Shown one piece after another: positions 6,371 through 37,472 of a DNA stretch of 64,000 bases (its first letter is position 1; every line of letters begins with the position of its first letter). Position numbers and translations under genes: made by a program. This stretch comes from Bdellovibrionales bacterium (GTDB lineage Bacteria > Bdellovibrionota > Bdellovibrionia > Bdellovibrionales > UBA1609): NCBI GenBank assembly GCA_050246815.1, contig JBFWVI010000012.1:1-64000 (forward strand). The letters are read 5' to 3'. The notes under the pieces were generated by a model. It was given only the letters and a program-made list of their open reading frames with translations, was not told the DNA's origin and did no database searches.

Positions 6371-6554
6371 CCGAAATCTCCTTTCGCGGGCGTCCTCTTG
6401 TTTGACCAAGAAGGATAATTTTTGCGATCAATTTTTCCACTCGTTCACGTCGAGCCTCGGCGTCTTCGGAAGTGTCGGCAACACCTATCAGCTCAACAGT
6501 CATTTCCTCTTCGTCAAAATCCACCGCCGCTTTGTACGTGGACTTCCTACCCAC
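6348..6554 (-). CDS. Small protein upstream of the integrase (possible directionality factor or DNA-binding protein)
   Basis: GTG start overlapping the XRE gene stop; RGRPRK AT-hook-like motif; function inferred from position only. Confidence 0.5.
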   Translation of the reverse strand: MGRKSTYKAAVDFDEEEMTVELIGVADTSEDAEARRERVEKLIAKIILLGQTRGRPRKEISDEEQKAA

Positions 6555-8229: not shown

Positions 8230-8510
8230 GGCGGCCCAACCTTTGTTGCTGGAATCAGGACAAAGTGCCCAAGTTCAATGCTGCCGTTTTCAAGATTGGG
8301 CTCGACCCAATCTAGAGTAAATTCAGACAAGGTGGTCCCTTTCAGACTTTGAGGGATCTTAAGCTCTGATCCAATAGTGACCTGACGAATACGGACCTGA
8401 CAGCTATTGGTCCCAGAAAGAATAATGCGAGCGCCTTGCGGATTGCCACACTTGGGAGAATGGGCACAGGCTGAAAGCATTGTTGTGAAAAGCAAGATAA
8501 ACCACTTCAT
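8226..8510 (-). CDS. Small lipoprotein (VirB7/TraV-like)
   Basis: Lipobox LSAC; ATGA overlaps at both ends within the T4SS operon. Confidence 0.6.
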   Translation of the reverse strand: MKWFILLFTTMLSACAHSPKCGNPQGARIILSGTNSCQVRIRQVTIGSELKIPQSLKGTTLSEFTLDWVEPNLENGSIELGHFVLIPATKVGPP

Positions 8511-10165
8511 GCTGCCGCCTTTCCGTCTTGCGGAGTCGAGAGCTCCTCGACGACATCCGCAGTTTCCTTTGCAGGCTGCGTTTGATCGCTCGGAGTATCA
8601 TCCTTAATTTTCGGAAGGCCCATGGGCATTGGTTTTAAAAGCTTCGGAATTTGCGGCACGTCGAGATCAAAAGTTCGTTTAAACTTGAGCCTGACAGAAA
8701 GGCTTCCAGTTTCGTGTGGAAGAACCACGACGGCCTCTCCGATCCCAAGCTCCTTCTTAAACACATTGGGGTGTACCTTATATTCCTCGACCTCGCGAAC
8801 AGATCCGTCGCCGGTTTTCTGACTTCCGAATGTGCCATCTTTTTGCCGCTCAGTGACTTTAACGGATCGAACAGTGCCGATGACGCCCGCGAAGTATTCC
8901 GCTGACTCGGGTTCGTTTGTTCTCATGAAAACTTTTAAGTTTGAGTTGGTCAGGATTGTGTTGCTTACACCTTCACCTAGAGATGCTAGATCACCTAATG
9001 CCTGATGAGCAAAGACGATTCCGACATTTGCACTTCTAGATTTATTCAGAAGTGTAACGAAATTGGGTGTGAGATATTCCGTGAAATCGTCCAGGTAAAC
9101 GGAAAAGAACTTCCGGCTGGTCGCACTTCCAAGATGCCGGGATGAAACTGCACTTTGGAGGCATTGGAGAATCAGCTTGCCAGTCATTTTGCCTAGAGTC
9201 GGAATCTTAAGGGCCGGAAGCTGGCAGTAAACGATTTCTCCATCCTCAAGAGCGCGCTCCAAATCAATGTCCGAATTTTCGCAGTTGAAAATGCTTGCAT
9301 TAGGCCCAATTGAAAAGCACTGAAGCTGTGCAATCAAGCCGCTTGTACGCTGTTCGCGCTCCTCGCGCTTGAGGCTTACAAAGTCATCCACCCAAGCCTG
9401 AAGCCTCTCGTCCTTTGAGTTTTCACGCAGATGAAGCAATTGCTTTTCTTGCTTCAGACACTCAATCATTCGATAGGGGGTAGCCTTAATTTTGGCTTCT
9501 TCCAGTAGAAGCAGGCAGTGCAGGAATGCGTCGTATTGTATGCTCCTAAAGTATTCATTTTCAAAAGTGAGGGCACCAAAGACCCTTTCAACGACTTCGA
9601 GCACAGATCCACCGGCCAGTGGGTTGAATGTGTGGCTGATCTCGGGACTACAAAGGGAAAGAATGCGGACATCGTGCTCGCGATGATGTTTTTTGGCGTA
9701 GGCATAAAGCTTGTTAAGGAGCCCGGAATCCGATTTACCGTCGATCATCAGAAGTCCTCGGCCTTTTTTGATGTCGTCTACGGCCCACGGGATGATGACG
9801 GACTCGGTCTTTCCGGCGTTTGTTGTGCCGACGACCTGAGTATGCATCCTTTTAAAGGATTGTTTGATATAAACAGATTTTCCCTCGGGTGTGATGCCAG
9901 CAAAAACGGCATCCTCATTTTCCCCTGGAGAAAGAACCAGTTTTTCCAGCTCGGCAGGTTTTCGCCGCTCGAGAAATTTTCGTTTTATCCAATAATAGGA
10001 GCCCATGATCAATGCTGTGATAGCGACAGCGATCCCGTAACGCCATTTCAAATAAAATGCGACGATCTGTAACTTGAATTTGAGCCAGACGATGAAACCT
10101 ACAAGTCCAACTGCTAAAATCGCAAAACCACGATCTGACATGCCTCCGTTCTTATTTTCATTCAT
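8507..10165 (-). CDS. virD4: Type IV coupling protein (VirD4/TraD/TraG family)
   Basis: Two N-terminal TM helices, HTQVVGTTNAGKT Walker A, IDGK, YLDDF Walker B, KSRSANV, ESAEYFAGVIGT. Confidence 0.9.
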   Translation of the reverse strand: MNENKNGGMSDRGFAILAVGLVGFIVWLKFKLQIVAFYLKWRYGIAVAITALIMGSYYWIKRKFLERRKPAELEKLVLSPGENEDAVFAGITPEGKSVYIKQSFKRMHTQVVGTTNAGKTESVIIPWAVDDIKKGRGLLMIDGKSDSGLLNKLYAYAKKHHREHDVRILSLCSPEISHTFNPLAGGSVLEVVERVFGALTFENEYFRSIQYDAFLHCLLLLEEAKIKATPYRMIECLKQEKQLLHLRENSKDERLQAWVDDFVSLKREEREQRTSGLIAQLQCFSIGPNASIFNCENSDIDLERALEDGEIVYCQLPALKIPTLGKMTGKLILQCLQSAVSSRHLGSATSRKFFSVYLDDFTEYLTPNFVTLLNKSRSANVGIVFAHQALGDLASLGEGVSNTILTNSNLKVFMRTNEPESAEYFAGVIGTVRSVKVTERQKDGTFGSQKTGDGSVREVEEYKVHPNVFKKELGIGEAVVVLPHETGSLSVRLKFKRTFDLDVPQIPKLLKPMPMGLPKIKDDTPSDQTQPAKETADVVEELSTPQDGKAAA

Positions 10166-11117
10166 ATTCGCCACCTCCTTCTTGAAGCCCTAGGGATTCA
10201 TTCAAGACGGCATCACATTCGCTGCCTGCCATGAGTTCGATCCACTCTCGTTCCGTTTTTAACTTTTCTCCGTAGACCTGGGCGCGTGATTGTGCCGTTG
10301 CCGACACCGCACCCAATAAGCCATTAGTCAGTCCTCCTTTTGATCGTCCAAGGATATCCGTTTCCATACTGCCCGAGGCCAAGCCTCCCACAAAAGTGGT
10401 GAGCACTTGTCCTGCTGTATTTTTCATTCCATCCGAGAAGATGCGGCCTTCGATTCCGGGCTGACCGTCCTTTCCGAGAGCTTGAGCTGAGATTTTCCGA
10501 ATCTGACCGCTCGGTAAGGAAAGCTGTGTGAATCGCACAGATGCTCTCTCGCTTCCGCGCTGAAAACTGGCTTCGCCGTAAAGTTTGGTGCCAGCCGGAA
10601 GCTTGAGTCCGGAATCTGTTTGCGAATCAAGGAGAAGTTCGGCAAGGACTGGTACCGGATCTTGAGAGATAATAACTTTATCAAGAATGCGAAGGGGAAG
10701 TCGGTGGCCCGCTCGGAGTTGAGTTTTGGCATTGCCTCCCTTCTGCCCAAGAATCATCGACGTGTTGTGATTGACTTGGCTTCCACCACCTCGGGGAAGC
10801 GAAACATGAGAAGAAGACCATAGAGAATGTGCAGCAGATTTTTGCGAGGACTTGTCTTGATTTTTTGCATCTGCGTTCGAACTTCTTGAGTCTGAATTTT
10901 CAACTTTTTCGGTGAATTCAAGAGGCACATCGTCCGGTAATAAGAAGACAACGCCTACGAATACAAAAACACTGGCAAGACCCAAGGTCTTAAAAGCCTT
11001 GAAATTCACATCTCCTTTTTGGCTTACATTGCTGTCTCGAATGAAAACCTTGCGGACGTTTGTGACCAGAGATTTCAATTTGCTTCCGGCATTTGCAATG
11101 AAAGACTTTACTTCCAT
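10158..11117 (-). CDS. VirB10/TrbI-like T4SS core protein
   Basis: N-terminal TM, low-complexity linker, LPAGTKLYG...DGQPGIEG motif. Confidence 0.82.
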   Translation of the reverse strand: MEVKSFIANAGSKLKSLVTNVRKVFIRDSNVSQKGDVNFKAFKTLGLASVFVFVGVVFLLPDDVPLEFTEKVENSDSRSSNADAKNQDKSSQKSAAHSLWSSSHVSLPRGGGSQVNHNTSMILGQKGGNAKTQLRAGHRLPLRILDKVIISQDPVPVLAELLLDSQTDSGLKLPAGTKLYGEASFQRGSERASVRFTQLSLPSGQIRKISAQALGKDGQPGIEGRIFSDGMKNTAGQVLTTFVGGLASGSMETDILGRSKGGLTNGLLGAVSATAQSRAQVYGEKLKTEREWIELMAGSECDAVLNESLGLQEGGGEYE

Positions 11118-11818
11118 AAAGTTCCCTCCGGCAAAGTCAGAGAGATTTTTTGTTTACTGCGAAGCTCGATGGTGAGGGACCTTTTCTCAAAAAGATCGGA
11201 TTTCGCAAGCGAAATTCCGATGAGGACCGGTTTTGATTTTGAAAGCTTGAGATCTGAAATGAAAAGTCCATTGATTACTTTCGATGTTCCGTTTTGTGTG
11301 ATCCAAAAATCGTCAGGCTTTAGAGTTGTGGTTTCAGTGGATGATGAGACGAGCTTGGCATCTAGTAGGATGAATCCCTGATTGGAATAGCCGATGCGAG
11401 AAATGGCGAATCTGATGCCATTGGCTTCAGTGAATCTGGAAACGGTTGTCCAGCGTGATACTGGTTTTGCTTCTGGATGTTTCACATAGACAACATAATC
11501 AGCCGTATCTTGCGACAGCGTGAGTAGGCGAAGATTGTAGCGACGTTTTTCGGTGTTCAGATATAAATTGGTCTTTACACCCCACCGCAAAGGCTTGATC
11601 GTTACTGCTTTGTCTAGGTACTCCACCTTAAAGCCAGAGCTATCGCCAATGATGGCGGACTGAATTGTCTCGGGAACCTGAATGATCGTGGCAATCCCAA
11701 GAGCCGCTCGGATGGTGAGGATCTCGTCACTGGTCGCCACTAAATTTCGGACATGCGCAAACGCAGGCCAAGATTGCAGAAAAATCGCCGTTAGGGCCAA
11801 GATTGTGACCCCCCTCAT
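11108..11818 (-). CDS. VirB9/TrbG-like T4SS outer-membrane core protein
   Basis: Signal peptide; TIIQVPETIQSAIIGDS...IKPL...TNLYLNTEKRRYNLRL. Confidence 0.82.
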   Translation of the reverse strand: MRGVTILALTAIFLQSWPAFAHVRNLVATSDEILTIRAALGIATIIQVPETIQSAIIGDSSGFKVEYLDKAVTIKPLRWGVKTNLYLNTEKRRYNLRLLTLSQDTADYVVYVKHPEAKPVSRWTTVSRFTEANGIRFAISRIGYSNQGFILLDAKLVSSSTETTTLKPDDFWITQNGTSKVINGLFISDLKLSKSKPVLIGISLAKSDLFEKRSLTIELRSKQKISLTLPEGTLWK

Positions 11819-12405
11819 GGTCTGGCCTCTTCTGTTTCCTTCGTGATATAGATTCCCCAAGGGTTCACCACTGTTCGATCATCCAAAGCTATTTGGAGAA
11901 CAAGGCGCATTTCGGTTGCGGCCTTGAGGTTTTCAAATTCAGTCACTCGGTCAGCGAGCACGGTGACTTTCTTTTCTTTAAGGTCGACATCGACGGACTT
12001 TGGATAAACACGCTGAGTAATTTTCTTTTCGCGAACGAATTTTTGAGTTTCAGCCATGGATTTATCAAACGCCGAGACAAGCGAAGGCAGAACAAAGAAT
12101 TTTGCCTTTGCGACCTGATTCGCAATTGTGCCGTCAGTCCAAGAGTAGCGATAGGAAACGTACTCTTTGATTGCAGCCTTGACCTGAAGGTCGGTCACTT
12201 TAGATTCGACCCTGGTGATTTCGCCGGTGTTGTCCAAGGCGATGACCATAGGTCCCTTTTTCACCAGATAAAGCACAAGAAGTAGCATGACAAAGAAAAG
12301 GCCCAGGAGACTTGCGCAAAGAAATTTAAGATTGAGATTTTCTTCGGCGAAGGTACGCATGGCTTTCGGATAAGAGCTGATTTGTAGTGTTGTTTTTTGA
12401 TTCAT
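11815..12405 (-). CDS. VirB8/TraE-like T4SS inner-membrane protein
   Basis: Single TM, C-terminal NPWGIYIT motif, position between VirB6 and VirB9. Confidence 0.78.
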   Translation of the reverse strand: MNQKTTLQISSYPKAMRTFAEENLNLKFLCASLLGLFFVMLLLVLYLVKKGPMVIALDNTGEITRVESKVTDLQVKAAIKEYVSYRYSWTDGTIANQVAKAKFFVLPSLVSAFDKSMAETQKFVREKKITQRVYPKSVDVDLKEKKVTVLADRVTEFENLKAATEMRLVLQIALDDRTVVNPWGIYITKETEEARP

Positions 12406-12420
12406 AGGTAGCACCTCCTT

Positions 12421-13299
12421 TTATGGCCGCTTGGGGCCGTTAATTTTGTTTTGAATAGATTGAAGTTTATGACTGGCAAATGCCCGAGTGTTTGAGAGCA
12501 CCTCACGCGTGATTGCCTTGGCAGCGAGCATCTTTCCGGGTAAAGCGACTGCTGCAAGGACCGCCGTCGTTCCGATGGTTTGAGCTGTTGCCTGGACTCC
12601 TTCTCCAATAAGCGAGTGCATAACCTTCGGTGTAAAAAGAAGGGCAATGGCTATCACGAAGTTCATCACGATTAGCGTCAGGTAAGAGCCATCCGTTCGA
12701 TAAATATTCCCGAAGGAAAGCGAGGTCAGCATTGCAGACATGATCGCCCACAAGATTTTCCAGCAAGCGACCTCGATGAGCCCCCGGTAAAGATTCGCGG
12801 TTATTCCCGCCGTCTTTGGGAAAATGTAACAAAGAATCATCAGGGGTGCGCAGACCGACAGGAGAACCCAGTAGAAATAATAAAGAGCAATCGTGATATA
12901 GCGGGCGATCAATAGCAGAACGAAACTTCCAAAGCTTAAGACCGCCATGAAGAGATCATCGAACTTAAGGAGCAGGACGTTCTTGGCGGTGGCATAGCTT
13001 TGCGATTTCTCCTGCGCCATGCGCATGAAAGTTTCAAGGCCCGACATATTATCAATTTTCGCGGCGATACCGTCGCAAATATCCAGAATGATATTTGATA
13101 CCTCAGGAAAAGAAGCCAGAAGCAGACTTGCAACGAGGGCCCGCTTGATTACGTCCGGATAATCGGCATCTCCGGATTTGAGGTATCCAAAGACAACCGA
13201 AAATAAAATTGCCAGCGGCAGCAACACGTAAAATAGCTGACTCAAGCCTTGATAGAGATCGCGGACCAGAGAGCCGAGCATGTCAAGATTTGGAATCAC
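12421..13299 (-). CDS. VirB6/TrbL-like polytopic membrane protein
   Basis: Multiple TM helices; APL...FPKT motif; operon position. Confidence 0.8.
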   Translation of the reverse strand: MIPNLDMLGSLVRDLYQGLSQLFYVLLPLAILFSVVFGYLKSGDADYPDVIKRALVASLLLASFPEVSNIILDICDGIAAKIDNMSGLETFMRMAQEKSQSYATAKNVLLLKFDDLFMAVLSFGSFVLLLIARYITIALYYFYWVLLSVCAPLMILCYIFPKTAGITANLYRGLIEVACWKILWAIMSAMLTSLSFGNIYRTDGSYLTLIVMNFVIAIALLFTPKVMHSLIGEGVQATAQTIGTTAVLAAVALPGKMLAAKAITREVLSNTRAFASHKLQSIQNKINGPKRP

Positions 13300-13997
13300 T
13301 TTCCACCTCCAAGTCTTGGAAGCTCAGTTCCCTTCGGCAGTTCCTTAAACCCGTTTGAAAGGCCCTGGTAATTTTCTTGGAAATTTTGAGTCGCAAGCTT
13401 TTCCTTGCGAGTATCGTAGGCCATGTTTTGGGCCATGATTTTCAGCATCTGACTTTGAGAGCGAAGAAGCTGAGTTGTAACGCCAATCAGCACACCAAGA
13501 GCCTGATTTTGAAGTTTTCCGGCCCCTTGGGGACTGACAACTTGTGCATGAAAGAGGATTTTGTCTCGCTCACGATCCACTTGGTCGGCGTAGTCATAAA
13601 GATTTCGATTCATTGCAATGACTTCAGCGACACTTTGATCTTGAGACCGCATCAAGTCCTCATCCATTCCTTGAGGGACAGCTCCATAAACAGATTGAAT
13701 TGCCCGAAGAACATCGTCGGCGGTTCTTAAATCGCCATACACGCCGGGATTGAAATTTGGATTGATAATCTGAATGAGATCGAGCCCACTTCTTACTCCG
13801 GCGTTGATGTCACGCATGAGATCCAAAGTATCTTTGCCGTTTTCCAGCATACTTTTAAGTGTCAGCACCGTTTGAATAGCTTGAGCAAGAATCTGTGTGA
13901 GGACAACAACGTCGCCGCCAAAAAGATCAGCGCGGGCCGGATGGGGGCTTACCATCATAGATAGAACTAAAAGAGAGCTCAGAATTCTTTTCTTCAT
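13296..13997 (-). CDS. VirB5/TrbJ-like secreted helical protein
   Basis: Signal peptide (PARA-DLFGGD), helical Q-rich body, between VirB4 and VirB6. Confidence 0.65.
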   Translation of the reverse strand: MKKRILSSLLVLSMMVSPHPARADLFGGDVVVLTQILAQAIQTVLTLKSMLENGKDTLDLMRDINAGVRSGLDLIQIINPNFNPGVYGDLRTADDVLRAIQSVYGAVPQGMDEDLMRSQDQSVAEVIAMNRNLYDYADQVDRERDKILFHAQVVSPQGAGKLQNQALGVLIGVTTQLLRSQSQMLKIMAQNMAYDTRKEKLATQNFQENYQGLSNGFKELPKGTELPRLGGGK

Positions 13998-16459
13998 GCC
14001 GGAACCTCCTTTGTTGATGCGATTCCGAATGGGGCAACTTGAGCTGCCTCCATCAACGCTTCTTCGAGTGATTGATGTTTGAGTTTAAGATTTTCCAAGA
14101 ACTGGTTGTCTCTGGCGTCTGAAGTTGAAATCCAATATTCAAGTGGCGAAGGCTGAATCCGGATGACTTGCCGACTTTCTCCTTCCATCAAGAAGCCTTC
14201 ACTGAAAACACCTTTTCGTTGTTCAAGACTCTGGATAAGTCTCAGCTCTTGAGAGTTCAGCTTGAGGGCATCCCCTAAAACATTGGTGTCACCCTTCTGA
14301 AGCATCACAAGCTTGGTGGCCGTGTTGTTCAAAATGGCAGGGCCCATGCCACACGCAATAATTTCTTCAACGCCTTGGGTGATGAAGCTCACGCCACTTC
14401 CGGTTTTACGAAAAGTTCGCGCCGCATACTCCATGAAAGAACTTGCCGCTGGGCTTCTGAGTAGCTCCCAAGCCTCGTCGAGCAAAACTCGTTTCGGAAC
14501 GGTCCGATCCGTTTCAACTTGCTCCAGAATGAAGTTTGTCAAAATAAGGATCATTACGGACTGGAGATCCGGATACTGAGAAAGCCCTTTCAAATCGAAA
14601 GCGACTATTGCTCGATCCGATTCAATTTTTCCAGGGCGGTCCAAAAGACGGCCGTAGGGAGTTTCACCAAGCCAAGGGAATAGCAGCTTGCCAATTCGCT
14701 TGAGTGATTCATCAGGGTCTTTTTGGCAGTGGTGAGCCAGGTCCGACAATGTTGGCGACTTGGGATCATCAGACTGCCGCGCCTTTTCAAAAACAGTGGT
14801 GAGAGCGGTTTCAAGCAGAACCCGCTCAAACCGAGAAAGTTTCTCGCCAGCATCAACAACCATTTGCTCAACGATGCTGACAAGACCTTTCAGCCGATCA
14901 CCACTTGGCGGAAGGCTGGGATCGCGTAATTCAAATGGATTTAGGGCATACTGGCCAGTCAGGTTGATTTCAAAGTACTGGCCGCCCAGAACTTCTGTCA
15001 TCTTTTTGTAGGAGCCACCAATGTCGATGATAAAAACCTTCGTTCCACGTGCAATCTGCTGAAGCATCAAAAAATTGTTGGCAAAACTTTTTCCTGAGCC
15101 GCTGGACCCCGTGATAAGCGAATTAAAATTATTCAGCCGGTTTGAATAAGGATTGTGAGTATAGAGAGTGCCGAGCCGAGTCTTTAGTAGACAGACCGGC
15201 ACATCGTCGCCGGTGGCAGCACCATAAAGCGGAAAGAAATCGACCAAATTATTGGTCTTCATCCGCTTGGTTCTCACCGGACTCATAGGGGCTAGAGGCA
15301 AGTCGGACTTAAAGACTTTCCAGCTTCCAACCGTTTCCTGAATGCCTTCGGACCCACTTAGGGTTTTGAATCGGGCCAGAACTTCTTTTGTATGCAGATT
15401 CAGGCGTCTTGCGCCCTCCCGCGTTTCTTCTTCACGGAGAATAATCAGTAGTTCTGTTTGAAAGATTCTCTGACCTGTTTCGATAATCTCGCGGAGGAGG
15501 TCGGTAGTTTGGGAAAGGCGCGATTCACTTTCAAGATCAGAAACTCGATTTGAGGTCGTGGCCGAGAGCGAATGGGCCATTCGGCGCTTTTGCTCAAGGC
15601 TTCTGATTTCTTTAGATTGATCCGGAGTCTTGAATGAAAAGATCAGTTCATACTTGAACGGAAGCGCGAGAAACCCACTCATCATCCCGGCAAATGTCAC
15701 TTCGGGAAGAGTTTTAAGGGTGATGACGCGAGTTCTAAGTCCATCAAGGATGAAATCTTCCCGGTCCAGAATCAAATCTCCAAACACGATCTGGGACCTT
15801 GGTGATGGATCATCAAGATCTGTTGGTCGCACGGCTACTACGGGACAAGTAATGTCAGCGCTTCGTTTTGGATTGAAATGCTGGTAGAGAATTTCAATCA
15901 GTCTTTCGCGGGTCAGATGCGCAGATGAAAACCCAAGCGAAGCCAGGGAACTTTCGGCTCCTTCAAGAGCTTGACTCAAAGTTTGAAGACGATCCTCGAA
16001 TCCTTTTTCAAATTCGAGAGCGAATTTCTTTGTTTGTGAAAGGGAAAGAGTGCCGGGCCACTCAGTTCCTTCAGTTTTTAAAAAAAATAGAAGTTTCGGG
16101 CGGAAGACCAGACCCGCTTTGACCTGTTCATAAATCGAGCTCGCTCGTGCTTTGTCCAACGATTGAAGGAATTGATTTTTTGTGGTGACGAGGCATTCGT
16201 GTTTTTGCAAGACCTCCTCAACGTCGGTCTCAATTTTTACCATGAACTGGCTCGTCATGCCCTCTGGTAAGGAGTTCGCGAAGGCTCGCAGACCTTGGGT
16301 AAGCTGGTTAATTCTGGATTCATCAAAACACTCAATATCGAGTGGCAAGAGTTCAACACCGGAACTGATGGACCCATCCCATAAGACGATATGAGGAAAA
16401 GGATTGGATTCAAATTCCCAATAGGGAAGATTGTCGCTTAATGCGTTTTCGTTATTCAT
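13994..16459 (-). CDS. virB4: VirB4/TraC conjugative transfer ATPase
   Basis: GSSGSGKS Walker A, IIDIGGSY, LDEAWELL Walker B, RTFRK, ITQ. Confidence 0.95.
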   Translation of the reverse strand: MNNENALSDNLPYWEFESNPFPHIVLWDGSISSGVELLPLDIECFDESRINQLTQGLRAFANSLPEGMTSQFMVKIETDVEEVLQKHECLVTTKNQFLQSLDKARASSIYEQVKAGLVFRPKLLFFLKTEGTEWPGTLSLSQTKKFALEFEKGFEDRLQTLSQALEGAESSLASLGFSSAHLTRERLIEILYQHFNPKRSADITCPVVAVRPTDLDDPSPRSQIVFGDLILDREDFILDGLRTRVITLKTLPEVTFAGMMSGFLALPFKYELIFSFKTPDQSKEIRSLEQKRRMAHSLSATTSNRVSDLESESRLSQTTDLLREIIETGQRIFQTELLIILREEETREGARRLNLHTKEVLARFKTLSGSEGIQETVGSWKVFKSDLPLAPMSPVRTKRMKTNNLVDFFPLYGAATGDDVPVCLLKTRLGTLYTHNPYSNRLNNFNSLITGSSGSGKSFANNFLMLQQIARGTKVFIIDIGGSYKKMTEVLGGQYFEINLTGQYALNPFELRDPSLPPSGDRLKGLVSIVEQMVVDAGEKLSRFERVLLETALTTVFEKARQSDDPKSPTLSDLAHHCQKDPDESLKRIGKLLFPWLGETPYGRLLDRPGKIESDRAIVAFDLKGLSQYPDLQSVMILILTNFILEQVETDRTVPKRVLLDEAWELLRSPAASSFMEYAARTFRKTGSGVSFITQGVEEIIACGMGPAILNNTATKLVMLQKGDTNVLGDALKLNSQELRLIQSLEQRKGVFSEGFLMEGESRQVIRIQPSPLEYWISTSDARDNQFLENLKLKHQSLEEALMEAAQVAPFGIASTKEVPA

Positions 16460-16779
16460 GTGACGTCCCTGGATGAGAATCGTCGATATTTTTTGTCGGT
16501 CGAATTTGCCGATTGGATGGTCGGAGAAATGAGATGTTCAACGAAATGCTGGATGTAGCCGTCCGGCTTTCCGCGTTTGAAAAAGAACAGCACTCCGAAT
16601 AAAAGAAGGCTCGATCCAAATACCATCGGAATTTTGGCGACGGTTGAGCCAAAAAGAAGATTCTGGACCGAAATGTTTAAGAGCAAAATCAGAACGTCGG
16701 AAAGCTCAAGGCCCAGGATTTTATTTTTCGTCTCTAGGGTTCTGGGAACATTTGATGTCAATAGAGAATCGTCGTTCAT
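16456..16779 (-). CDS. VirB3/TraL-like small membrane protein
   Basis: Two TM segments, KRGKPDGY motif; between the pilin and VirB4. Confidence 0.7.
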   Translation of the reverse strand: MNDDSLLTSNVPRTLETKNKILGLELSDVLILLLNISVQNLLFGSTVAKIPMVFGSSLLLFGVLFFFKRGKPDGYIQHFVEHLISPTIQSANSTDKKYRRFSSRDVT

Positions 16780-17066
16780 CAGCGCACCGTCTGCGAGATG
16801 AAGTCAACGATGGCCTGAGCGCCGAAGCCAATAATAGAGCCGAAAATCGCATACCACATATGGGTTTTGGCTCGCTCGTTTCCGCTCATCATCGAAAATG
16901 CGGCCCATGCGATTCCAATGATTGAAAGCGCGGGCAAGATCACTCGAGTCAATTTCGTCTGAATCCCGATGAGAGAAGATTCGACACTGGCAAGGCCAAG
17001 CTCTGGCATCAGAACTAGAACGAGGCTCATGACAGTCAAAGTTAAAAACATTTTTTTTCTATTCAT
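16779..17066 (-). CDS. VirB2/TrbC-like pilin
   Basis: Signal peptide plus two hydrophobic helices ending IIGFGAQAIV; strong RBS caggaggtg. Confidence 0.82.
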   Translation of the reverse strand: MNRKKMFLTLTVMSLVLVLMPELGLASVESSLIGIQTKLTRVILPALSIIGIAWAAFSMMSGNERAKTHMWYAIFGSIIGFGAQAIVDFISQTVR

Positions 17067-17096: not shown

Positions 17097-17510
17097 TTAA
17101 GATGCAATATGGTCCTCCTGGGGTTCGTTTTTCTCAGGGAATAGGCAGAGAAAGATGTTTTCAGGTAAGAGCTGAATCCTGAGAACGATAAAGCTTCCAA
17201 GCAGCCGGCCATTGCCAATGCGATTCCAGCTTGTCCGCGTCTCTCCAGTCGGAAGCTGGTACTCCTCAAGGCTTAGAACCACGTATTTCGTATCGTCCTT
17301 GTCATCGGGCATGATGAAATACTGATGACTTGGGAACACGAAGAGCTTTAGGCGAAACTTCTTTGAGCCGGGTTTGAGATACGCGATCCCGACGCATTCA
17401 CCTTCAACGACTTCACCACCTGAGGTGATTTCACCGAGGTAGACACCGAAGCTGTCAGATTTGCGGATGGGAATGACGTTGCCGTGGCGTGAATCATTAT
17501 ATTCACTCAT
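17097..17510 (-). CDS. Hypothetical protein with duplicated beta-rich unit (possible ssDNA-binding)
   Basis: Two similar segments (VGIAYL...FRLKLFVFP and IGNGRL...VLRIQLLP); ATGA-coupled. Confidence 0.55.
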   Translation of the reverse strand: MSEYNDSRHGNVIPIRKSDSFGVYLGEITSGGEVVEGECVGIAYLKPGSKKFRLKLFVFPSHQYFIMPDDKDDTKYVVLSLEEYQLPTGETRTSWNRIGNGRLLGSFIVLRIQLLPENIFLCLFPEKNEPQEDHIAS

Positions 17511-17758
17511 GCAGCAAACCTTTCCATCTCAAACATTTCCACGACGTCTTCGGTCCACCCACATTCAGAGCACGTCAGATAACCGCTCCTGAAATCGGTT
17601 AGCCCTCGGCACTCAGGGCACAGGTCTCCATCCACGGGAGGGCCCGCCTTTTTGAAATTGAGATACCGACGTTTCAATCCAGGCTCCATTTGTCTAGCGT
17701 AGGTCTTCTCGCTCTCAGTTCGATAGATCGGATTTTTGTCCTTAAAAGTTCGAGCCAT
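17507..17758 (-). CDS. Small zinc-ribbon protein
   Basis: CPEC...CSECGW. Confidence 0.65.
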   Translation of the reverse strand: MARTFKDKNPIYRTESEKTYARQMEPGLKRRYLNFKKAGPPVDGDLCPECRGLTDFRSGYLTCSECGWTEDVVEMFEMERFAA

Positions 17759-17967
17759 CAGAACCTCCCCATGTGATTAAAATCAGTGGGGGGACGGCAC
17801 CTCTTCATCTCAAGGCGTTCCCATTGCTCGAAGCTCAGATCAGATTTCGTGAAGGGGAGTTTCAATCGTTCCCACAGAGTGGGTTTTGCCGCCTTTTCAA
17901 GAGGGATGAGCGAGAGATTCGCGGCCCTCTTTGTTTCACTTTGAATTTTGATTTGTTTTGCATTCAT
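17758..17967 (-). CDS. Hypothetical protein
   Basis: ATG after aaggaggt RBS; coupled to the next gene. Confidence 0.6.
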   Translation of the reverse strand: MNAKQIKIQSETKRAANLSLIPLEKAAKPTLWERLKLPFTKSDLSFEQWERLEMKRCRPPTDFNHMGRF

Positions 17968-17991
17968 AAACGTACCTCCTTTGTTTTTTGG

Positions 17992-18264
17992 TTAAGCGAT
18001 CCGTTGCGTACTGGAAGAGAAGTCTTCACCGACGCCCGCGAGATCGATTGTGTTTTCGTTTTCATGGTTGACGTTGAAATCAACGTCGCTGCCGAATTGC
18101 TGACGAACGGCTTCAAAAATGTTGTCGAGCTGGCCGAGTTCGACCAGGAGCAGACTGTTGTCCCAATCGCAGCCGCAACACATTTGATCGATGCCTAAGG
18201 TCAGAATTTCTTTTGACCCGCACTTCGGACATTTTTCCTTTTTGTGTTCAGTTCCAATTTTCAT
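17992..18264 (-). CDS. Small zinc-ribbon protein, first gene of the transfer operon
   Basis: CPKC...CCGCDW; RBS aagggg. Confidence 0.62.
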   Translation of the reverse strand: MKIGTEHKKEKCPKCGSKEILTLGIDQMCCGCDWDNSLLLVELGQLDNIFEAVRQQFGSDVDFNVNHENENTIDLAGVGEDFSSSTQRIA

Positions 18265-18315: not shown

Positions 18316-18331
18316 AGCAGGAATGGGTCCG
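18316..18331 (-). promoter_or_regulatory. Candidate sigma54 (-24/-12) promoter of the transfer operon
   Basis: Minus strand CGG-ACCCATTCCT-GCT has GG-N10-GC spacing, about 50 nt upstream of the first gene. Confidence 0.45.
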
Positions 18332-18418
18332 AAACGTGGGCGAGAGCCCAGATGATGGCTATGTGATTGAATTGCCTTTGGATTGGCAGATTTCGAATGC
18401 GCTTTTGAAAATCGCTGT

Positions 18419-18537: not shown

Positions 18538-18590
18538 GTCAAATCAAATCGAATTTAGGGAAGAATGCAGAAAATACCGGAAGGAAGAGT

Positions 18591-20132
18591 CTAAACGACG
18601 ACGATAGGAATGTCACTCAACGCTGTTTTTGGAATAAGGGGGATTTGACGTGTCTTACATGCCGACTGAACTATGGGATCGTCAAAGTGTCCTGTAACCA
18701 AGAATTTCTCCGCACCTGGCGATGAGATCTCAGCGAGCAAATCAATGCCGGTTTTCTTAGTTCCCAAATCATAGTCTGCAAAGACAACAACCCGGCCTGA
18801 AGCAGCACCTGATTGACTGCTTAAAAATGACAACGCGGCTCTAGCGGTCTCATGGCATGTAGGTACATTGGTAAAACCAGCTTCTCTCAGGCGCTCTCGC
18901 CAAATGTCATGCATGGTTACTTGGTCATCAACCACAACAACGGTATCACTGTTCTTGAGCTTGATCCGTGGAACATACCAGGGCTCTCGGGACTGAATTG
19001 GAAGAGTCACTTGAACGGATGTGCCGAATCCAACCTCTGAGGAAATTCTTAAAGATCCGCCCCAAGCTTCAATATTTTCCTTTGCGTGATGAAGACCAAG
19101 TCCGGTCCCTGTAGGCTTTCCAAATGAGAAACCCTTCTCCGTGACTTTTGATTGAAGTTCAGAAGGAATTCCTTTTCCATTGTCTTTTACCTCGATGATG
19201 ACCCGGTCCCCGAAGTCCTGCGCGATGAGATCGACTCGTCCACTGTCAGGTGTTGCTTCAAAGGCATTCGTTGCCAAATTTGTCAAAATAGACCTTAGCT
19301 CGTGCCCTATGAAATCTCCATGCGCGGAAATCAACGAATCATCAACCTGGGTTGTAACGATCAAACGCCCTGGTGATACGAGGCGAACCTCTCGCATCGC
19401 ATCGGTCAAGATTGGATGAAACAAATTGTCTGACGCTGACTTCTTGTTCGGCTCGTCCAAGTCTGAAACTAAATTTTTAATGTGCGTGATGACGTTCGAT
19501 AGAAGTTCTTGGTTATTATCTGAAGGGCCTTTCCGATTTGAAAGACGAATCAGTGCAGAAAGCGGTGTTCGGATATTGTGTCGAAGTTTTCTTGCGACTT
19601 CGGCTCGGGCCAATTCGGTCTCGATACGCAAAGATTCGTCAAAGCCCTCAACAATTCGTTTCTTCATCAAGCGCGTTTGCGGGATTGAAACCAGATTCAA
19701 GACCACCCAAATTAAAAATGCCCAGCCGATTTCTTTCAGGCGGCTAAACTCAAAAATAATTTTATCTTGGCTCGTTGTAATAGTCGGAATATCCACCGCA
19801 ACTTCGTCATAGGTTAGGCGTCGCAAAAACGATTTGTCAGGAATAAGATCCGCCAGTTCTGGGAGCGTAAAAGATCTACGAGGATCAGATGAAATGTATC
19901 GAATCGTTGAAAAGTGATCGAGCCTTGCTTCCTGGAGGGTTATACCGACCTCTCGAAAATCCTCGACTTGAATCATACGAGAAATAAACTTTGCTGTCTG
20001 CATGGCTTGGCCACTTAGATGAATGTAGTTGAAGACAATCGAGAGACAAAAAAGAATCAAAAGGCCAAGCAGCGAAGCTATGAGCTGTTTTCTTTCAAAA
20101 CTTTTAAGGCGATGCTTCAATGATTCTCTCAC
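18591..20132 (-). CDS. Hybrid membrane sensor histidine kinase with C-terminal receiver-like domain
   Basis: Two TMs; H box RHNIRTP, N box NLATNAFEA, DNGKGI, GTGLGL; VVVDDQ...FADYDLG...VTG receiver features. Confidence 0.9.
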   Translation of the reverse strand: MRESLKHRLKSFERKQLIASLLGLLILFCLSIVFNYIHLSGQAMQTAKFISRMIQVEDFREVGITLQEARLDHFSTIRYISSDPRRSFTLPELADLIPDKSFLRRLTYDEVAVDIPTITTSQDKIIFEFSRLKEIGWAFLIWVVLNLVSIPQTRLMKKRIVEGFDESLRIETELARAEVARKLRHNIRTPLSALIRLSNRKGPSDNNQELLSNVITHIKNLVSDLDEPNKKSASDNLFHPILTDAMREVRLVSPGRLIVTTQVDDSLISAHGDFIGHELRSILTNLATNAFEATPDSGRVDLIAQDFGDRVIIEVKDNGKGIPSELQSKVTEKGFSFGKPTGTGLGLHHAKENIEAWGGSLRISSEVGFGTSVQVTLPIQSREPWYVPRIKLKNSDTVVVVDDQVTMHDIWRERLREAGFTNVPTCHETARAALSFLSSQSGAASGRVVVFADYDLGTKKTGIDLLAEISSPGAEKFLVTGHFDDPIVQSACKTRQIPLIPKTALSDIPIVVV

Positions 20133-20938
20133 AGCTTGCCTCCGGGGATTGTTACCCGCACAAAAGTAAGGGGAATGTCTGTGATAGAACGACTAGCAAG
20201 GGTCTCACGATGGACTGGAAAGTTCGTAGGCGTAGTTGTTGAGGACGAGGAGATGCTTGGTTTTTCGAACACATTTCTGTGTGACTCAAAAAAGGAACTA
20301 CTGCAGCACCAAAGATCCGGATTTGTTTCCACAGCTTCTAAGAACTGTTCTTTATTCTCGCTATAGGCAGCATAATTTCTGAGCGCCTCGATAGCCGCAT
20401 GAAGTTGAGTTTCATCTGCGTTGCCGCCAAGTCCAATACCTAAAAATTTTCGGTCATCCTTTTCAATGAGACAAAGACTCGATTCATAAGCCCAGGCAGG
20501 GCGTAGTTTCATCCACGAAATTGTTCCTCCTCGAGCTATAATTGCTTGCGAAATTTTCTGTGTTTTAGGGAGAGTAATGTCTGAAATGAAAGGTGTTTTT
20601 GTGTTGAGATGCCATCGAAACAAATACCGTTCAATTGCTTCTCGGCCCGCATTATGATCGGCGAACTCGGCAATAGAATGAGCTGCAACTCCTTCGGTTG
20701 AAAGGTCGTTTTCAAAACAAACGAATCGCTCTAAGGCTTCAGCAGCAGCTTTCTCAAAGGCAAGATTTTGATCAGTGGATGATCCTCGGCCAGAATGGCG
20801 ACCGCCTAAAATAGAAATCTCAAAGTCAAAGAGAGGAATGCCGTAGCCAGTTCCCCATTTGAACTCGTGAAACTTGACTTCAAGTTCCGATTTTTTTGAA
20901 ATAAGCCATTTTGCAGCGACTAATGTTTGATCAGCCAT
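20129..20938 (-). CDS. Minimal YcaO-like protein
   Basis: GRGSS...AAAEALERF, STEGVAAH...AGREAIERY and GIGLG...AAIEALR match the ATP-binding motifs of YcaO. Confidence 0.75.
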   Translation of the reverse strand: MADQTLVAAKWLISKKSELEVKFHEFKWGTGYGIPLFDFEISILGGRHSGRGSSTDQNLAFEKAAAEALERFVCFENDLSTEGVAAHSIAEFADHNAGREAIERYLFRWHLNTKTPFISDITLPKTQKISQAIIARGGTISWMKLRPAWAYESSLCLIEKDDRKFLGIGLGGNADETQLHAAIEALRNYAAYSENKEQFLEAVETNPDLWCCSSSFFESHRNVFEKPSISSSSTTTPTNFPVHRETLASRSITDIPLTFVRVTIPGGKL

Positions 20939-22464
20939 AATTGATTATTCGCATAAATTTCTGAAAGTTCCATTTTCCAGGGATTTCTGGCAATCGCGAC
21001 AAATGGCGCGATAACCAGCGGAACGATTGCGGCGTCCGCTAGGGCCTTGAAATGGAGCTCTCGAAGAACTTTTGTTCTTTCCTCTTTGCTTGAAAGCGAC
21101 ATGTAATTGGCCATCCACTGAGAACGTTCAGATTTTTTAAGTCCTAAGAATCCTGTATTCAGTGAATATGAAATCAGGTTGATGTCTTCCATAAAGCCGG
21201 TGTCAGTTCCAGCAATGATCGCATGAGGCATCTCTGAAGGATCTTTGTACACATGAAGGTCCGGAAGAACTTTTTCCAAATAAAGATCGGCTTTGGGCAA
21301 CACTTCTCGAATAGGGGTAGCCCATTGTTCAAAATCACCAGACTTAAATAGTCCAATGCGCAGGTTGGCCGGAGCTTCCCCTTTGACTTGGCCGATTAAG
21401 CGATGAATTTCAGCTTGCTGATTATCGCTAAGGCCGCCGTCTCCAAGTGCCGGAAAAAATTCTTCTGACGGCTGATAGCCAGGAAGTCCTTGATAAATCT
21501 TTGTGAATGCTTCGCGGACTTTTCTTCCGACGATATGGCGCTGTTCAGCTGTAAGTCCCTTTTTTCCCCGATCCGTGAAAATCAGAACAAAGTTTTTGAT
21601 TTTCATGGTCGCATGAAGCTGGACATCAGAATGATTGCGAGCGTAGTTGATAATATCCTCAATTTTGGAAGCATTTGTGGTAAGAAGATGATCGACCTTT
21701 CCTTCGTCAAATAAGGCCAAGGCGCCGGGAGATGCTTTAGGATCGAAGGCCACCATAGTCACTTCCTTCGCTACGCCCTCTTGCGACCGAAAGTGATTCG
21801 GATTTTGTTTCAAGTGTATGGAGCCGTCATCATCTTGCTTGGCTAGGTAATAGAGTCCCGTAGTTTCACTGTAATCCATGATTTCAAGTGTCTTAGGATC
21901 AACTGCAGATTGCGGAATGATAGCGAAGTCGATTGCCGAAAGCATTGGAAGCAGAACGGTCTTCTGCGATCCAGGTTTCAAGACAACAGTGTCGCCGCGA
22001 AGCTCAACACCTTTGCAGCTGTCAGTCACACCTTTCATGACTTCGCCCGGGCAGATTAAATCACGAAAATTGCCATGGGTATTTTGAGAAAGAAGGATCA
22101 CTCGCTTCAGAGAAAAGATAACGTCAGAAGCTGTGACGGGTTTGCCGGATATAGTGCGCAGATCAGAGCGAATCTTAAAATGAAGTTCCGGTCCTTCCCA
22201 CCGAAAAGATTCCGCCAGAGCAGGAAGGACCTGACCGCCTTTAGGATCAATTTCAACAAGTGGTGAATAAAGATTTTCTAGCAAAATGTATTCATAAGCC
22301 ACATGGATGTTTGTGGGCTCAAAAGTTTTGATTGGGCGCTTGGACGGAAATGCCACACGAAGCGTTTCCGTCTGATTTGAATCTGAGTTATTTATTGTAT
22401 AGCCCACAAGCCCTCCAGCCAAAATCAAAAGCCCAATTGTCATCCAGGTTTTCATAGTTGTCAC
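20920..22464 (-). CDS. Family 5 (OppA/DppA-like) solute-binding protein with no transporter partners
   Basis: LYSPLV...PALAESF.W...FKIR...GKPVTASDVIFSL signature; N-terminal hydrophobic anchor. Confidence 0.85.
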   Translation of the reverse strand: MTTMKTWMTIGLLILAGGLVGYTINNSDSNQTETLRVAFPSKRPIKTFEPTNIHVAYEYILLENLYSPLVEIDPKGGQVLPALAESFRWEGPELHFKIRSDLRTISGKPVTASDVIFSLKRVILLSQNTHGNFRDLICPGEVMKGVTDSCKGVELRGDTVVLKPGSQKTVLLPMLSAIDFAIIPQSAVDPKTLEIMDYSETTGLYYLAKQDDDGSIHLKQNPNHFRSQEGVAKEVTMVAFDPKASPGALALFDEGKVDHLLTTNASKIEDIINYARNHSDVQLHATMKIKNFVLIFTDRGKKGLTAEQRHIVGRKVREAFTKIYQGLPGYQPSEEFFPALGDGGLSDNQQAEIHRLIGQVKGEAPANLRIGLFKSGDFEQWATPIREVLPKADLYLEKVLPDLHVYKDPSEMPHAIIAGTDTGFMEDINLISYSLNTGFLGLKKSERSQWMANYMSLSSKEERTKVLRELHFKALADAAIVPLVIAPFVAIARNPWKMELSEIYANNQLWLIKH

Positions 22465-22769
22465 TTTTCCGACGGTATCGCCGCAACTGGATCAACGCAG
22501 ATGACACCTTCCTTCATTGGAACGGTTTGAATCACACCTTCACGGCGAAGCTCCTCAACCAAGTCTTTGTTAATTTTAAGACCCTTCGCTGGCCGAACGG
22601 TCAGCGCGCGGGATTGCAAAAGAACCATCAATGCTTGTTTGATGGTTTCTTTGTCGTAAACGCGGGTATCGATCTGATTTTGACCTTCCGTGTTTTCGCA
22701 TTCCGCTGACCAAGCGGTATGGCTCAACATCAAAACCAGAAGCAAGGCTGTTACGTTTGATTTTTTCAT
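22461..22769 (-). CDS. Small secreted protein (candidate signal or RiPP precursor)
   Basis: Sec signal peptide ending AWSA; 4-nt overlaps with both neighbours; C-terminal EGVICVDP. Confidence 0.7.
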   Translation of the reverse strand: MKKSNVTALLLVLMLSHTAWSAECENTEGQNQIDTRVYDKETIKQALMVLLQSRALTVRPAKGLKINKDLVEELRREGVIQTVPMKEGVICVDPVAAIPSEK

Positions 22770-24172
22770 TGTTCACTCCCTTTTTGTTCAAATGGATTTT
22801 CAATTTCTAAAGCTCTCATTCTCGATCTCAGCATACTGCGGGCAATTCCCAGCCGGTCCGCCGCCTCAGTCAAACTCTTCGAGGCGTTTAAGGCGCGCTG
22901 GACAAGTTGCTTCTCTTCGCTGACGGTGCGAAGTCGCCAGATTTCATAATCAATCTCGGCGGCGAACTTTTTCTTTGGAGTTTTCGGCTCCATTTGCGTT
23001 GTGGCTCTCTCAAAGGCGTCTTCGGTTATGACTTTTCCGTCGGTCATTAAGTGCATTCGAGAAATCACATGCGAAAGCTCACGGATGTTTCCAGGCCAAG
23101 GTTGTTTCATCATCAGGCTTGCGCACGAAGACAAAATTTCCTTCTGTTCGCCTGTGACTTCGTTTTCTTTTTTAAGGAAAAATTCGATCAAGCACGGAAT
23201 GTCCTCGGGCCTGTTGCGAAGTGGTTCAAGCGTGATTAGTAGAGCGTTGATTCGATAGAAAAGATCCTGACGAAATCTGCCACCAGCGATCATTTCTTCA
23301 AGAGGAGCATTGGTCGCGGTGATGACGCGAACTTTTACCTTCTTCGGAACATTTGAGCCAACGGGAGTAATTTCTCCTTCTTGAAGAACGCGAAGTAGAG
23401 TGGCCTGCAAATGGATTGGCAGTTCACCAATTTCGTCCAAGAAAAGTGTACCGCCATTGGCGGCTTGAAATTTTCCAACTCGGTCTTTAGTTGCTCCGGT
23501 GAATGAGCCGCGTTCATGCCCAAAGAGTTCAGATTCGATCAATTCAGCCGGAATTGCTCCGCAGTTGACTGCGATGAACGGCCCCAGACGACAGGTCGAA
23601 TTGTCATGAAGCGCGCGAGCTATGCGCTCTTTTCCAGTTCCGTTTTCACCACGGATCAGAACTGACTGATAAGAAGGGGCGTATTTGAGAACTAGCTGGG
23701 ACACGTCGGCCAAATGGTTCGATGCTCCTTCCATACGAAGACTTTGAATCAGTTTTCGATTTTCGGTTGGGCTCGCAGCCGGAAGGACTTTGTTTTTCTT
23801 TTCGTACTCACGGCAAATTCGGTGAATGATTCCGAGAAGCTTTTCGTTACCGGTGTCTTTGGCGACGAACATCAGTGCGCCGGAATCGAGCGACTCGTTA
23901 TGCGCTTCGATCCCGTCGTCGCATGAAAATCCCAGCAGATGGAGTTTGGAATCGAATTCTCGAATTTTAGAAATGACCTCGGGTCCCTTAATACCCGGCA
24001 TGTGGTAATCCACCAAAGCTAATGAGAAAGGGACAACTTTTTGCCGGACAAGTGCCACGCCCTCATCGCCGGTTTCAACGGCCTTTACGAAGAAACCTTC
24101 ATCTTCAAGGAATGTCTTCATGGATGAACGGACCGAAGAGTCGTCATCTATAAGTAGGATGTTGTGCTTCAT
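22766..24172 (-). CDS. NtrC-family sigma54-dependent response regulator
   Basis: Receiver LIDDD...VDYHMP; AAA+ GENGTGKE, ESELFGHERGSFTGA, FLDEIGEL, WPGNIREL; C-terminal Fis-type HTH. Confidence 0.95.
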   Translation of the reverse strand: MKHNILLIDDDSSVRSSMKTFLEDEGFFVKAVETGDEGVALVRQKVVPFSLALVDYHMPGIKGPEVISKIREFDSKLHLLGFSCDDGIEAHNESLDSGALMFVAKDTGNEKLLGIIHRICREYEKKNKVLPAASPTENRKLIQSLRMEGASNHLADVSQLVLKYAPSYQSVLIRGENGTGKERIARALHDNSTCRLGPFIAVNCGAIPAELIESELFGHERGSFTGATKDRVGKFQAANGGTLFLDEIGELPIHLQATLLRVLQEGEITPVGSNVPKKVKVRVITATNAPLEEMIAGGRFRQDLFYRINALLITLEPLRNRPEDIPCLIEFFLKKENEVTGEQKEILSSCASLMMKQPWPGNIRELSHVISRMHLMTDGKVITEDAFERATTQMEPKTPKKKFAAEIDYEIWRLRTVSEEKQLVQRALNASKSLTEAADRLGIARSMLRSRMRALEIENPFEQKGSEQ

Positions 24173-24200: not shown

Positions 24201-24218
24201 TTACAAATTCAGTGCCTA
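24201..24218 (-). promoter_or_regulatory. Candidate sigma54-like promoter of the signalling operon
   Basis: Minus strand TAGGCACTGAATTTGTAA: strong -24 (GGCAC), variant -12 (TTGT). Confidence 0.4.
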
Positions 24219-24385
24219 GAAATTGAACACGGCAAAATAGTCCTTATTTACTCTGGTTCGATTTGGCGGTGGAAGTGTCTGACTTTTGAAGGCTCTGCCA
24301 TGTAAGAAGTGCATGGTCGTAATGTCACCAGATCGGGCGAAGATCGTAAGTGCATGATTGGAAAAGAGAATCAAGAATCGGAGAG

Positions 24386-24401
24386 TGGATTATTTGAGCC
24401 A
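24386..24401. promoter_or_regulatory. Fourth copy of the palindromic box (TGGATTATTTGAGCCA)
   Basis: 12/16 identical to the 18522-18537 box; upstream of the regulator gene. Confidence 0.45.
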
Positions 24402-37350: not shown

Positions 37351-37366
37351 AAATTCTACAACTTGC
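37346..37366 (+). repeat. attR: right copy CTACCAAATTCTACAACTTGC
   Basis: 20/21 identical to 4566-4586. Confidence 0.85.
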
Positions 37367-37472
37367 GAACCAGCGATGCCCGATGCCCAGATTGTTAAAT
37401 CTGGGGTAGAAAAAAATCAGAAATTGGGGTTCTACGGTTCTACGGATTAAGAGGCAAGTTCAGCAAGAGTTG

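Follow-up and report, generated by a model that had tools for sequence, protein, structure and literature searches.

How does a conjugative element decide when to leave its host, and could it do so by listening to other cells? A five-gene cassette of a Bdellovibrionales bacterium (assembly GCA_050246815.1) raises this question. It lies in a stretch of 64,000 nucleotides, positions 1 to 64,000 of contig JBFWVI010000012.1, which we call the window. The cassette is part of a 32.8-kb element that resembles an integrative and conjugative element (ICE), is integrated at a tRNA-Val gene and encodes a type IV secretion system (T4SS). A first-pass annotation proposed that the cassette makes, modifies and senses a peptide pheromone, a ribosomally made peptide that is modified after translation (RiPP), which switches on transfer. 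Our data indicate a real, conserved system that is apparently undescribed in the literature; no description of the cassette was found in the full text of open-licence PMC papers and bioRxiv preprints, a scope outside which subscription papers and supplements fall. The sequence comparisons make it rather probable that this system is a modified-peptide circuit, autoregulated and specific to its element, by which conjugative transfer is gated.

The cassette consists of the following genes:

22766..24172, minus strand: NtrC-type sigma54 activator of 468 aa (Pfam Response_reg, Sigma54_activat and HTH_8; receiver, AAA+ and helix-turn-helix (HTH) domains)
22461..22769, minus strand: candidate precursor of 102 aa, with a signal-like N-terminus, a helical region with L74 and G78, and Cys91 in the motif G-[VS]-I-C-V-D
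20920..22464, minus strand: family-5 solute-binding protein of 514 aa (SBP_bac_5, 1.4e-13) with an N-terminal hydrophobic segment
20129..20938, minus strand: minimal stand-alone YcaO of 269 aa, member of a tail-less clade, assigned by family profile (single-sequence Pfam E=0.085)
18591..20132, minus strand: two-transmembrane hybrid histidine kinase of 513 aa (HATPase_c, HisKA and receiver)

The five overlapping minus-strand open reading frames (ORFs) lie where the first-pass annotation placed them, and its 4-nt ATGA/GTGA overlaps and 19-nt overlap are all present. It had put the cassette immediately upstream of the T4SS operon on the same strand. Strand and position are as described, but 'immediately' does not hold, since about 1.5 kb separates the kinase from virB2; this interval is made up of a regulatory gap of 326 nt and of three small ORFs, which encode 90, 83 and 137 aa. 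Pfam gives no family for the 102-aa protein. Hydrophobic segments number two in the kinase and one, N-terminal, in the binding protein, and YcaO and the activator have none.

Is the cassette conserved, and is it tied to conjugation? A single-protein search yielded 10 places, spread over 7 of 60 relatives, and a profile search matched 158 of 401 genomes of the phylum, the weak end of which includes other YcaO types. Those 10 places, 80 of the strongest further ones, the window and a second cassette of the host genome on contig C46 gave a sample of 93 YcaO ORFs. Five (L022, L023, L069, L070 and L082) have no binding-protein-sized neighbour and were dropped. L022 and L023 carry activator, YcaO and kinase with no adjacent precursor or binding protein; in L022 a family-5 binding protein gene occurs further on, on the opposite strand. 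Binding protein and kinase both stand beside YcaO in 75 of the 93 places (75 of 88 after the drops). Two gene orders occur, (activator)-small protein-binding protein-YcaO-kinase, which we call order A, and YcaO-small protein-binding protein-kinase-(activator). Four of the 88 places, with neither binding protein nor kinase, were excluded from the linkage count. In the remainder virB4 lies within 25 kb of 29 of 43 activator-bearing cassettes, compared with 1 of 41 activator-less ones, and when only places flanked on each side by at least 15 kb of contig are counted, these figures become 17 of 22 and 0 of 16. The linkage holds in both gene orders and in several families, although kinship among the loci means that they are not independent. 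Conservation and linkage to transfer genes, which had been set beforehand as a test of the proposal, were thus borne out. Because the four-gene core also occurs without an activator and away from any T4SS, in the 41 activator-less places, gene content indicates that the core is a general signalling module that conjugative elements have adopted.

The 3.4-Mb host genome itself contains such a core. The second, divergent cassette (G000:C46:14603-15496 and neighbours) encodes an 81-aa small protein ending VVCEATK, a family-5 binding protein, a tailed YcaO and a kinase; it has no activator, and no virB4 is present on contig C46. Another activator-less cassette (L020:14340-19900) directly adjoins a CRISPR-like repeat array.

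The small protein is likely, with some room for doubt, to be the substrate of the enzyme encoded beside it. The strongest argument is that three unrelated classes of peptide-modifying enzyme occupy one slot. This emerged from 20 further virB4 loci, chosen from virB4 matches without a linked cassette. A distant YcaO cassette lies upstream in five of them, and two have a radical S-adenosylmethionine (SAM) enzyme in the YcaO slot; one of these two, L123, reads activator, 73-aa ORF, radical SAM enzyme, 117-aa signal-bearing protein, family-5 binding protein and kinase. One locus, L112, encodes an activator, a 94-aa signal-bearing protein, an alpha-ketoglutarate-HExxH peptide hydroxylase (54 bits, cut-off 40), a family-5 binding protein and a kinase. 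Three of the 20 end too soon to judge. The 73-aa ORF between activator and radical SAM gene (L121:7240-7461 and L123:13079-13300) has a HisKA-like look and no Pfam match. L117:10862-14669 and L125:5063-8854 carry, upstream of transfer genes, a secreted 380-aa protein of no Pfam family, a kinase and a sigma54 activator, with enzyme and precursor absent.

A small ORF lies within 120 nt of the binding protein start in 82 of 88 places, and 68 of these 82 are signal-bearing by a crude hydropathy rule that made at least one wrong pick (L021). Cys occurs in the last 16 aa of 54 of the 68, and its frequency there is 5.8% versus 1.1% in mid-protein. An x-C-hydrophobic/E motif follows an L-x-x-x-G helix in 29 of 31 activator-bearing order-A precursors. 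Across 47 aligned sequences L74 never varies, and conservation reaches at least 90% at G78 and C91. The expected conserved Cys core is present; among eight close homologs G88, I90, C91, V92 and D93 are invariant. Some relatives have Gly/Ser/Cys-rich C-terminal ends, and in some Ser or Thr replaces Cys (PTSI and PTTTF versus PSCV and PTCW). These two features suggest that azoline chemistry fits the C-terminus better than a disulfide role.

An Atlas search of the small protein gave no usable feature match. An RRE-like (RiPP recognition element) fold was considered and rejected, as only weak winged-HTH-like structural neighbours were found (TM 0.39-0.51) for a low-confidence model. A fusion of precursor and binding protein in loci with a long binding protein was also discarded, because L067 has a separate small ORF inside the over-extended frame. 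The precursors at L012:15058-15540, L013:4614-5024 and L018:14808-15227 contain an apparently duplicated helical unit, which suggests a repeated recognition module. The first-pass annotation cautioned that a precursor with a Sec signal must be modified by the cytoplasmic YcaO before export. There is precedent for this order of events in the MNIO RiPPs chryseobasins, bufferins and Dyb, whose precursors also bear a secretion signal and are modified near the C-terminus in the cytoplasm before export (PMC13056109).

The identification of the enzyme as a minimal YcaO also stood. The single sequence falls below the Pfam cut-off, and a single-sequence PDB search gave only spurious repeat-protein matches. 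A 146-sequence family profile matches the solved YcaOs MJ1094 (6.6e-15), McbD (1.6e-10) and TruD (5.9e-6), and Atlas features assign the protein to YcaO clusters at 0.95, the nearest clusters being mainly from Bdellovibrionota. Representatives matching at E<=0.001 number 429; no relative was found on viral contigs. In 88 cassette YcaO rows E67, R71, G83, E100, E103 and R104 are invariant and E70 is Glu in 86, and the window protein keeps all of these together with T81 and E184. We take the Glu and Arg positions to be ATP/Mg-binding residues, as in other YcaOs. The position equivalent to McbD Thr148 in an alignment to McbD (T81 in the window) is Ser or Thr in 83 of 88. The domain is minimal because its first two motifs are only about 10 residues apart. 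The window YcaO ends IPGGKL, whereas most relatives end in a PHP-x-G-like Pro-rich tail, and in a quick version of the tree it falls within a 16-member tail-less clade (SH-aLRT 100) that keeps all ATP residues. The terminal Pro of McbD has been proposed as a general base, and McbD without it still formed thiazoles at Cys (PMC6395948). By analogy, a tail-less enzyme acting on a Cys-only substrate is plausible.

A strict pairing of tailed YcaO with a Cys-X-stop precursor and tail-less YcaO with an extension is broadly true in activator-bearing order-A cassettes and is broken by L036 and several activator-less loci. Because of these exceptions and the few events on the tree, we did not use it as evidence of co-evolution. 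A different YcaO system, made up of a 134-137-aa protein, YcaO and a glycosyltransferase with no kinase, occurs at L068:5067-6471, L071 and L072; its 134-137-aa protein is PqqD-like by eye, has no family match and ends in a Thr/Ser-rich tail.

What would read the product? The binding protein is encoded without a permease, as the first-pass annotation had noted: there is none in the cassette and no permease match on the window's contig, and 13 ABC permease matches lie elsewhere in the host genome. A binding protein beside a kinase and without a transporter is the arrangement of binding-protein-assisted kinase systems. H185, the N and G boxes and the receiver residues D402, D403, D453 and K502 of the kinase are invariant across 17 aligned sequences. 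No RRNPP-type receptor family was found among the cassette or leader ORFs. The parts that would set specificity have diverged. In elements whose virB4 is 79% identical to that of the window, identity is 19-21% for the precursor, 30-31% for YcaO, 47% for the binding protein, 42-45% for the kinase sensor region and 30-32% for the activator HTH. We judge from these identities that the cassette has been exchanged or has diversified while the transfer backbone stayed conserved, and such divergence beside a far less divergent T4SS is as expected of specificity modules.

How would the circuit reach the transfer genes? The following candidate regulatory sites lie before the cassette and the transfer operon:

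18420-18435 and 18522-18537: exact copies of the enhancer-like palindrome TGGCTCA-NN-TGAGCCA
18502-18517: copy of the palindrome with 3 mismatches
18360..18372, minus strand: IHF-like site of the transfer operon (2 mismatches to the consensus)
18317..18331, minus strand: candidate sigma54 -24/-12 promoter of the transfer operon (weak match at a conserved position)
24386..24401: copy of the palindrome with 2 mismatches, about 182 nt before the cassette promoter
24347..24359, minus strand: IHF-like site of the cassette (1 mismatch)
24203..24217, minus strand: candidate sigma54 -24/-12 promoter of the cassette

These sites were called by comparison with consensus sequences for sigma54 promoters and IHF sites. 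The host genome encodes rpoN. The exact palindrome occurs twice in the 3.4-Mb genome, both times in the gap between kinase and transfer operon; with up to 2 mismatches there are 33 copies, of which one more lies in the window, upstream of the activator. An exact 10-nt direct repeat (24341-24350 and 24419-24428) lies upstream of the cassette promoter, flanks the palindrome there and is possibly the site of a second regulator. Scans of 17000-25000 for sigma70 promoters and terminators were at or near shuffle level.

Across the loci compared, a sigma54-like site lies directly upstream of the first cassette gene in 31 of 43, a count made without a shuffle control, and by a strict rule the same palindrome stands at both promoters in 6 of 25. 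Palindromes match across loci in 29 of 528 comparisons, all within eight loci with one common motif, and the window and L013 are in none of these. The motif varies between elements, as does the activator HTH. Spacing between cassette palindrome and promoter is 181-182 nt in 6 of 14 loci and 192-194 nt in 2, the other six having other values or none. Of 58 palindromes in the transfer leaders, 9 (from 9 of 25 loci) are followed at a distance of 101-104 nt by the best sigma54 match, against about 1.3 expected by chance, 3 of 56 on the antisense strand and 3 of 240 in random genome segments, with the offset picked after the data had been seen and the loci related. Most of these cases also carry an IHF-like site at +63/64. 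The canonical enhancer-IHF-sigma54 layout gives good support for placing both operons under the cassette's activator, and control of transfer by this activator is likely.

Taken together, the five genes would work as follows. Cytoplasmic YcaO, with ATP, would modify the backbone of the 102-aa precursor at Cys91, most likely to a thiazoline (-18 Da). Export of the precursor by way of its signal peptide would follow, perhaps with some trimming by proteases of the host. The membrane-tethered family-5 binding protein would bind the modified product and serve as co-receptor of the hybrid kinase, and the kinase, by the established chemistry of its family, would set the phosphorylation of the activator. 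Acting on the TGGCTCA-NN-TGAGCCA palindromes, the activator would open the sigma54 promoters of both the cassette and the transfer operon, the step that the promoter architecture supports. That the product acts from cell to cell is plausible and, on balance, slightly favoured, although the cassette encodes no protease or outer-membrane exporter.

The first-pass annotation had the peptide switch transfer on. The link from activator to transfer is supported by the shared promoter architecture and the virB4 linkage, while 'on' is one of two options and not the only sign to consider. In ICEBs1 and pCF10 the peptide that the element encodes acts as an inhibitor of transfer and is induced together with its operon (PMC6540685), and binding proteins can repress or activate a partner kinase (PMC8050422). 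We lean, by a narrow margin, to a peptide that shuts the kinase down and, like PhrI and iCF10, would tell a cell that its neighbours already have the element; our reason is that a sigma54-driven cassette must start without its own product.

Several observations weigh against a modified-peptide circuit. Fourteen of the 68 picked small ORFs have no Cys in the last 16 aa, some of them mis-picks. The window YcaO lacks the PxPxP-type C-terminal tail of azoline-forming YcaOs, and no E1-like/RRE partner or dehydrogenase is encoded among the five genes. No Hpt protein for the kinase receiver is found in the cassette, and the missing protease and exporter count here too. Five of the 20 additional virB4 loci pair a kinase with an activator and show no recognised enzyme, and another four lack such a module upstream. 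On the regulatory side, 19 of 25 loci fail the strict shared-palindrome rule, the 101-104-nt offset was a choice made afterwards, and when 1500-nt transfer leaders were scanned for sigma54 sites without an anchor, only 4 of 25 loci, the window not among them, scored above all 30 shuffles. In one rival explanation the wiring would be the same and the circuit cell-autonomous, the modified mini-protein staying in the periplasm of its producer, where its level or loss would report envelope state, growth inside prey or mating contact rather than population density. The mature precursor, about 80 aa, is presumably too large for porins, protease and exporter are not conserved beside the cassette, and the helical region (L74, G78) is conserved as strongly as the Cys. 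Strong divergence of precursor, enzyme and receptor beside much the same T4SS, together with RiPP enzymes that replace one another, is easier to reconcile with identity signals than with a gauge of stress, and we regard the cell-autonomous explanation as unlikely.

It is less likely still that kinase and activator control transfer according to an outside ligand held by the binding protein, as in ChvE-VirA and CBP-ChiS, in which case the small protein would be modified for some other purpose or YcaO would act on a different protein, like E. coli YcaO on uL16. Known pairs of binding protein and kinase do sense nutrients, including the family-5 protein CBP with ChiS (PMC8050422), stand-alone YcaOs can modify folded proteins (PMC13063428), and L117 and L125 keep a secreted protein, kinase and activator without enzyme or precursor. 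Such a sensor would hardly explain why enzyme and small protein are retained inside the sensing operon in two gene orders and several families, or why three unrelated peptide-modifying enzyme classes occupy the same slot. The 13 host permease matches and the precedent of PrgZ in pCF10 (PMC6540685) would allow the binding protein to deliver the peptide, via an Opp/Dpp permease of the host, to a receptor in the cytoplasm, the kinase sensing something else. As no RRNPP-like or other cytoplasmic peptide receptor was seen in the cassettes, and binding protein and kinase occur together in 75 of 93 YcaO places, this is very improbable. The loss of the C-terminal tail and the long branches could also mean that YcaO of the tail-less clade is a non-catalytic or chaperone-like binder and that the unmodified Cys peptide is the signal. 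We give this hardly any credence, since every one of the 23 rows in the short class has E67, E70, R71, G83, E100, E103, R104 and E184, and McbD remained active at Cys without its terminal Pro (PMC6395948).

The modified-peptide circuit, which we prefer, sits on an element with the parts expected of an ICE, namely recombinase, attachment (att) repeats, coupling protein, T4SS and relaxase, the relaxase assignment being weak:

4496..4571, plus strand: tRNA-Val, integration target
4566..4589, plus strand: att-like direct repeat at the tRNA 3' end (partner 37346-37369; 2 differences in 24 nt)
37346..37369, plus strand: distal att-like repeat
4502..6409, minus strand: large serine recombinase (Resolvase, Recombinase and Zn ribbon domains), the 3' end of its ORF running into the tRNA
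7414..8229, minus strand: probable relaxase, Replic_Relax/MobC-like (weak NCBIfam MobC match, E=0.0075)
8507..17066, minus strand: T4SS operon of virD4, virB10, virB9, virB8, virB6, a 233-aa ORF, virB4, a virB3-like gene and virB2
17097..18264, minus strand: three small leader ORFs of the transfer operon (137, 83 and 90 aa), kept in related elements

The homolog of the relaxase-like protein in L017 matches Replic_Relax at 6e-7. The 233-aa ORF is virB5 by position only, and among the operon genes neither virB11 nor virB1 could be recognised. Directly downstream of the relaxase-like gene, nested inverted repeats (7280-7381; 20-nt perfect arms and a 22-nt hairpin) are a candidate origin of transfer. 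A short ORF adjoining the distal att repeat (36835-37167) has a Recombinase-domain match and is possibly a directionality factor or a remnant. The cargo (24549-36476) comprises Usp, TolC-MFS-HlyD with MarR, a thioesterase, a glutathione peroxidase and an RND pump with TolC and TetR. Contig depth inside the element versus the flank is 9.1 versus 15.7 or 15.5 versus 20.4 in two possible source runs, and no empty-site junction was identified. Nor was an empty integration site found in two genomes of the same genus, which have short contigs and in which tRNA-Val is followed by other genes.

Modified-peptide pheromones are textbook knowledge for Gram-positive bacteria. In staphylococcal agr and Bacillus ComQXPA an autoregulated operon encodes a precursor, a modifying enzyme (AgrB or ComQ), a membrane kinase that binds the peptide directly and a LytTR or NarL response regulator, and the specificity parts diverge fast. 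The present cassette likewise unites kinase and regulator with a putative precursor and modifying enzyme in one operon with its own sigma54 and enhancer sites. It differs in its diderm host, in the use of YcaO (or radical SAM or HExxH enzymes), in export by signal peptide, in the interposed family-5 binding protein and in a sigma54 activator that would act on transfer genes. With ICEBs1 RapI/PhrI and pCF10 PrgZ/PrgX/iCF10 it would share a secreted, element-encoded peptide that gates conjugation, with a peptide gene induced along with the regulator or the transfer operon, and with pCF10 a dedicated binding protein for a proposed peptide ligand; their peptides are unmodified, imported by Opp and read by cytoplasmic RRNPP proteins, whereas here a kinase is present and no such receptor was seen (PMC6540685). 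A periplasmic binding protein as kinase co-receptor, as we propose, is known from CBP-ChiS, ChvE-VirA and LuxP-LuxQ, and CBP is also an SBP_bac_5 protein. Their ligands are sugars or autoinducer-2, unlike the proposed ribosomal product of the same operon (PMC8050422).

The enzyme resembles McbD and TruD/LynD in its ATP/Mg motifs, in the Thr148-equivalent T81 and in the Cys-bearing or Gly/Ser/Cys-rich C-terminal cores of relatives (PMC6395948). The cassette YcaOs are unlike them in their length of about 270-330 aa, the missing segment between the first two motifs and the lack of an E1/RRE partner or dehydrogenase; moreover, the window clade has no Pro tail and the product appears to be a signal, not an antibiotic. 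MNIO RiPPs differ from the cassette in their enzyme family, and no circuit of binding protein and kinase was seen in the text cited for them (PMC13056109).

Taken jointly, these data allow a broader, tentative picture, to which we give slightly less than even weight. Bdellovibrionota may possess modular RiPP pheromones, in which one of several exchangeable enzymes (minimal YcaO, radical SAM/SPASM or alpha-ketoglutarate-HExxH) marks a precursor that has a signal peptide, and a family-5 binding protein and kinase read it. Elements would couple this module to a sigma54 activator and an element-specific enhancer, which would give each of them a private chemical channel for a transfer decision made between cells, and the tail-less YcaO clade of the window would carry out backbone chemistry with neither a partner nor the canonical base at the C-terminus. 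The sequence offers testable parts, with two promoters, one enhancer, one Cys and one stand-alone YcaO. At 269 aa this YcaO is among the smallest of its family here, a possible tool for peptide engineering and a test of the role of the C-terminal tail. To our knowledge, conjugation control in Gram-negative bacteria is known mainly through small molecules, and we know of little description of cell-cell signalling in predatory bacteria. If the proposed circuit is true, a YcaO product would serve as a signal in predatory-type bacteria, read through a chain of binding protein, kinase and sigma54 activator.

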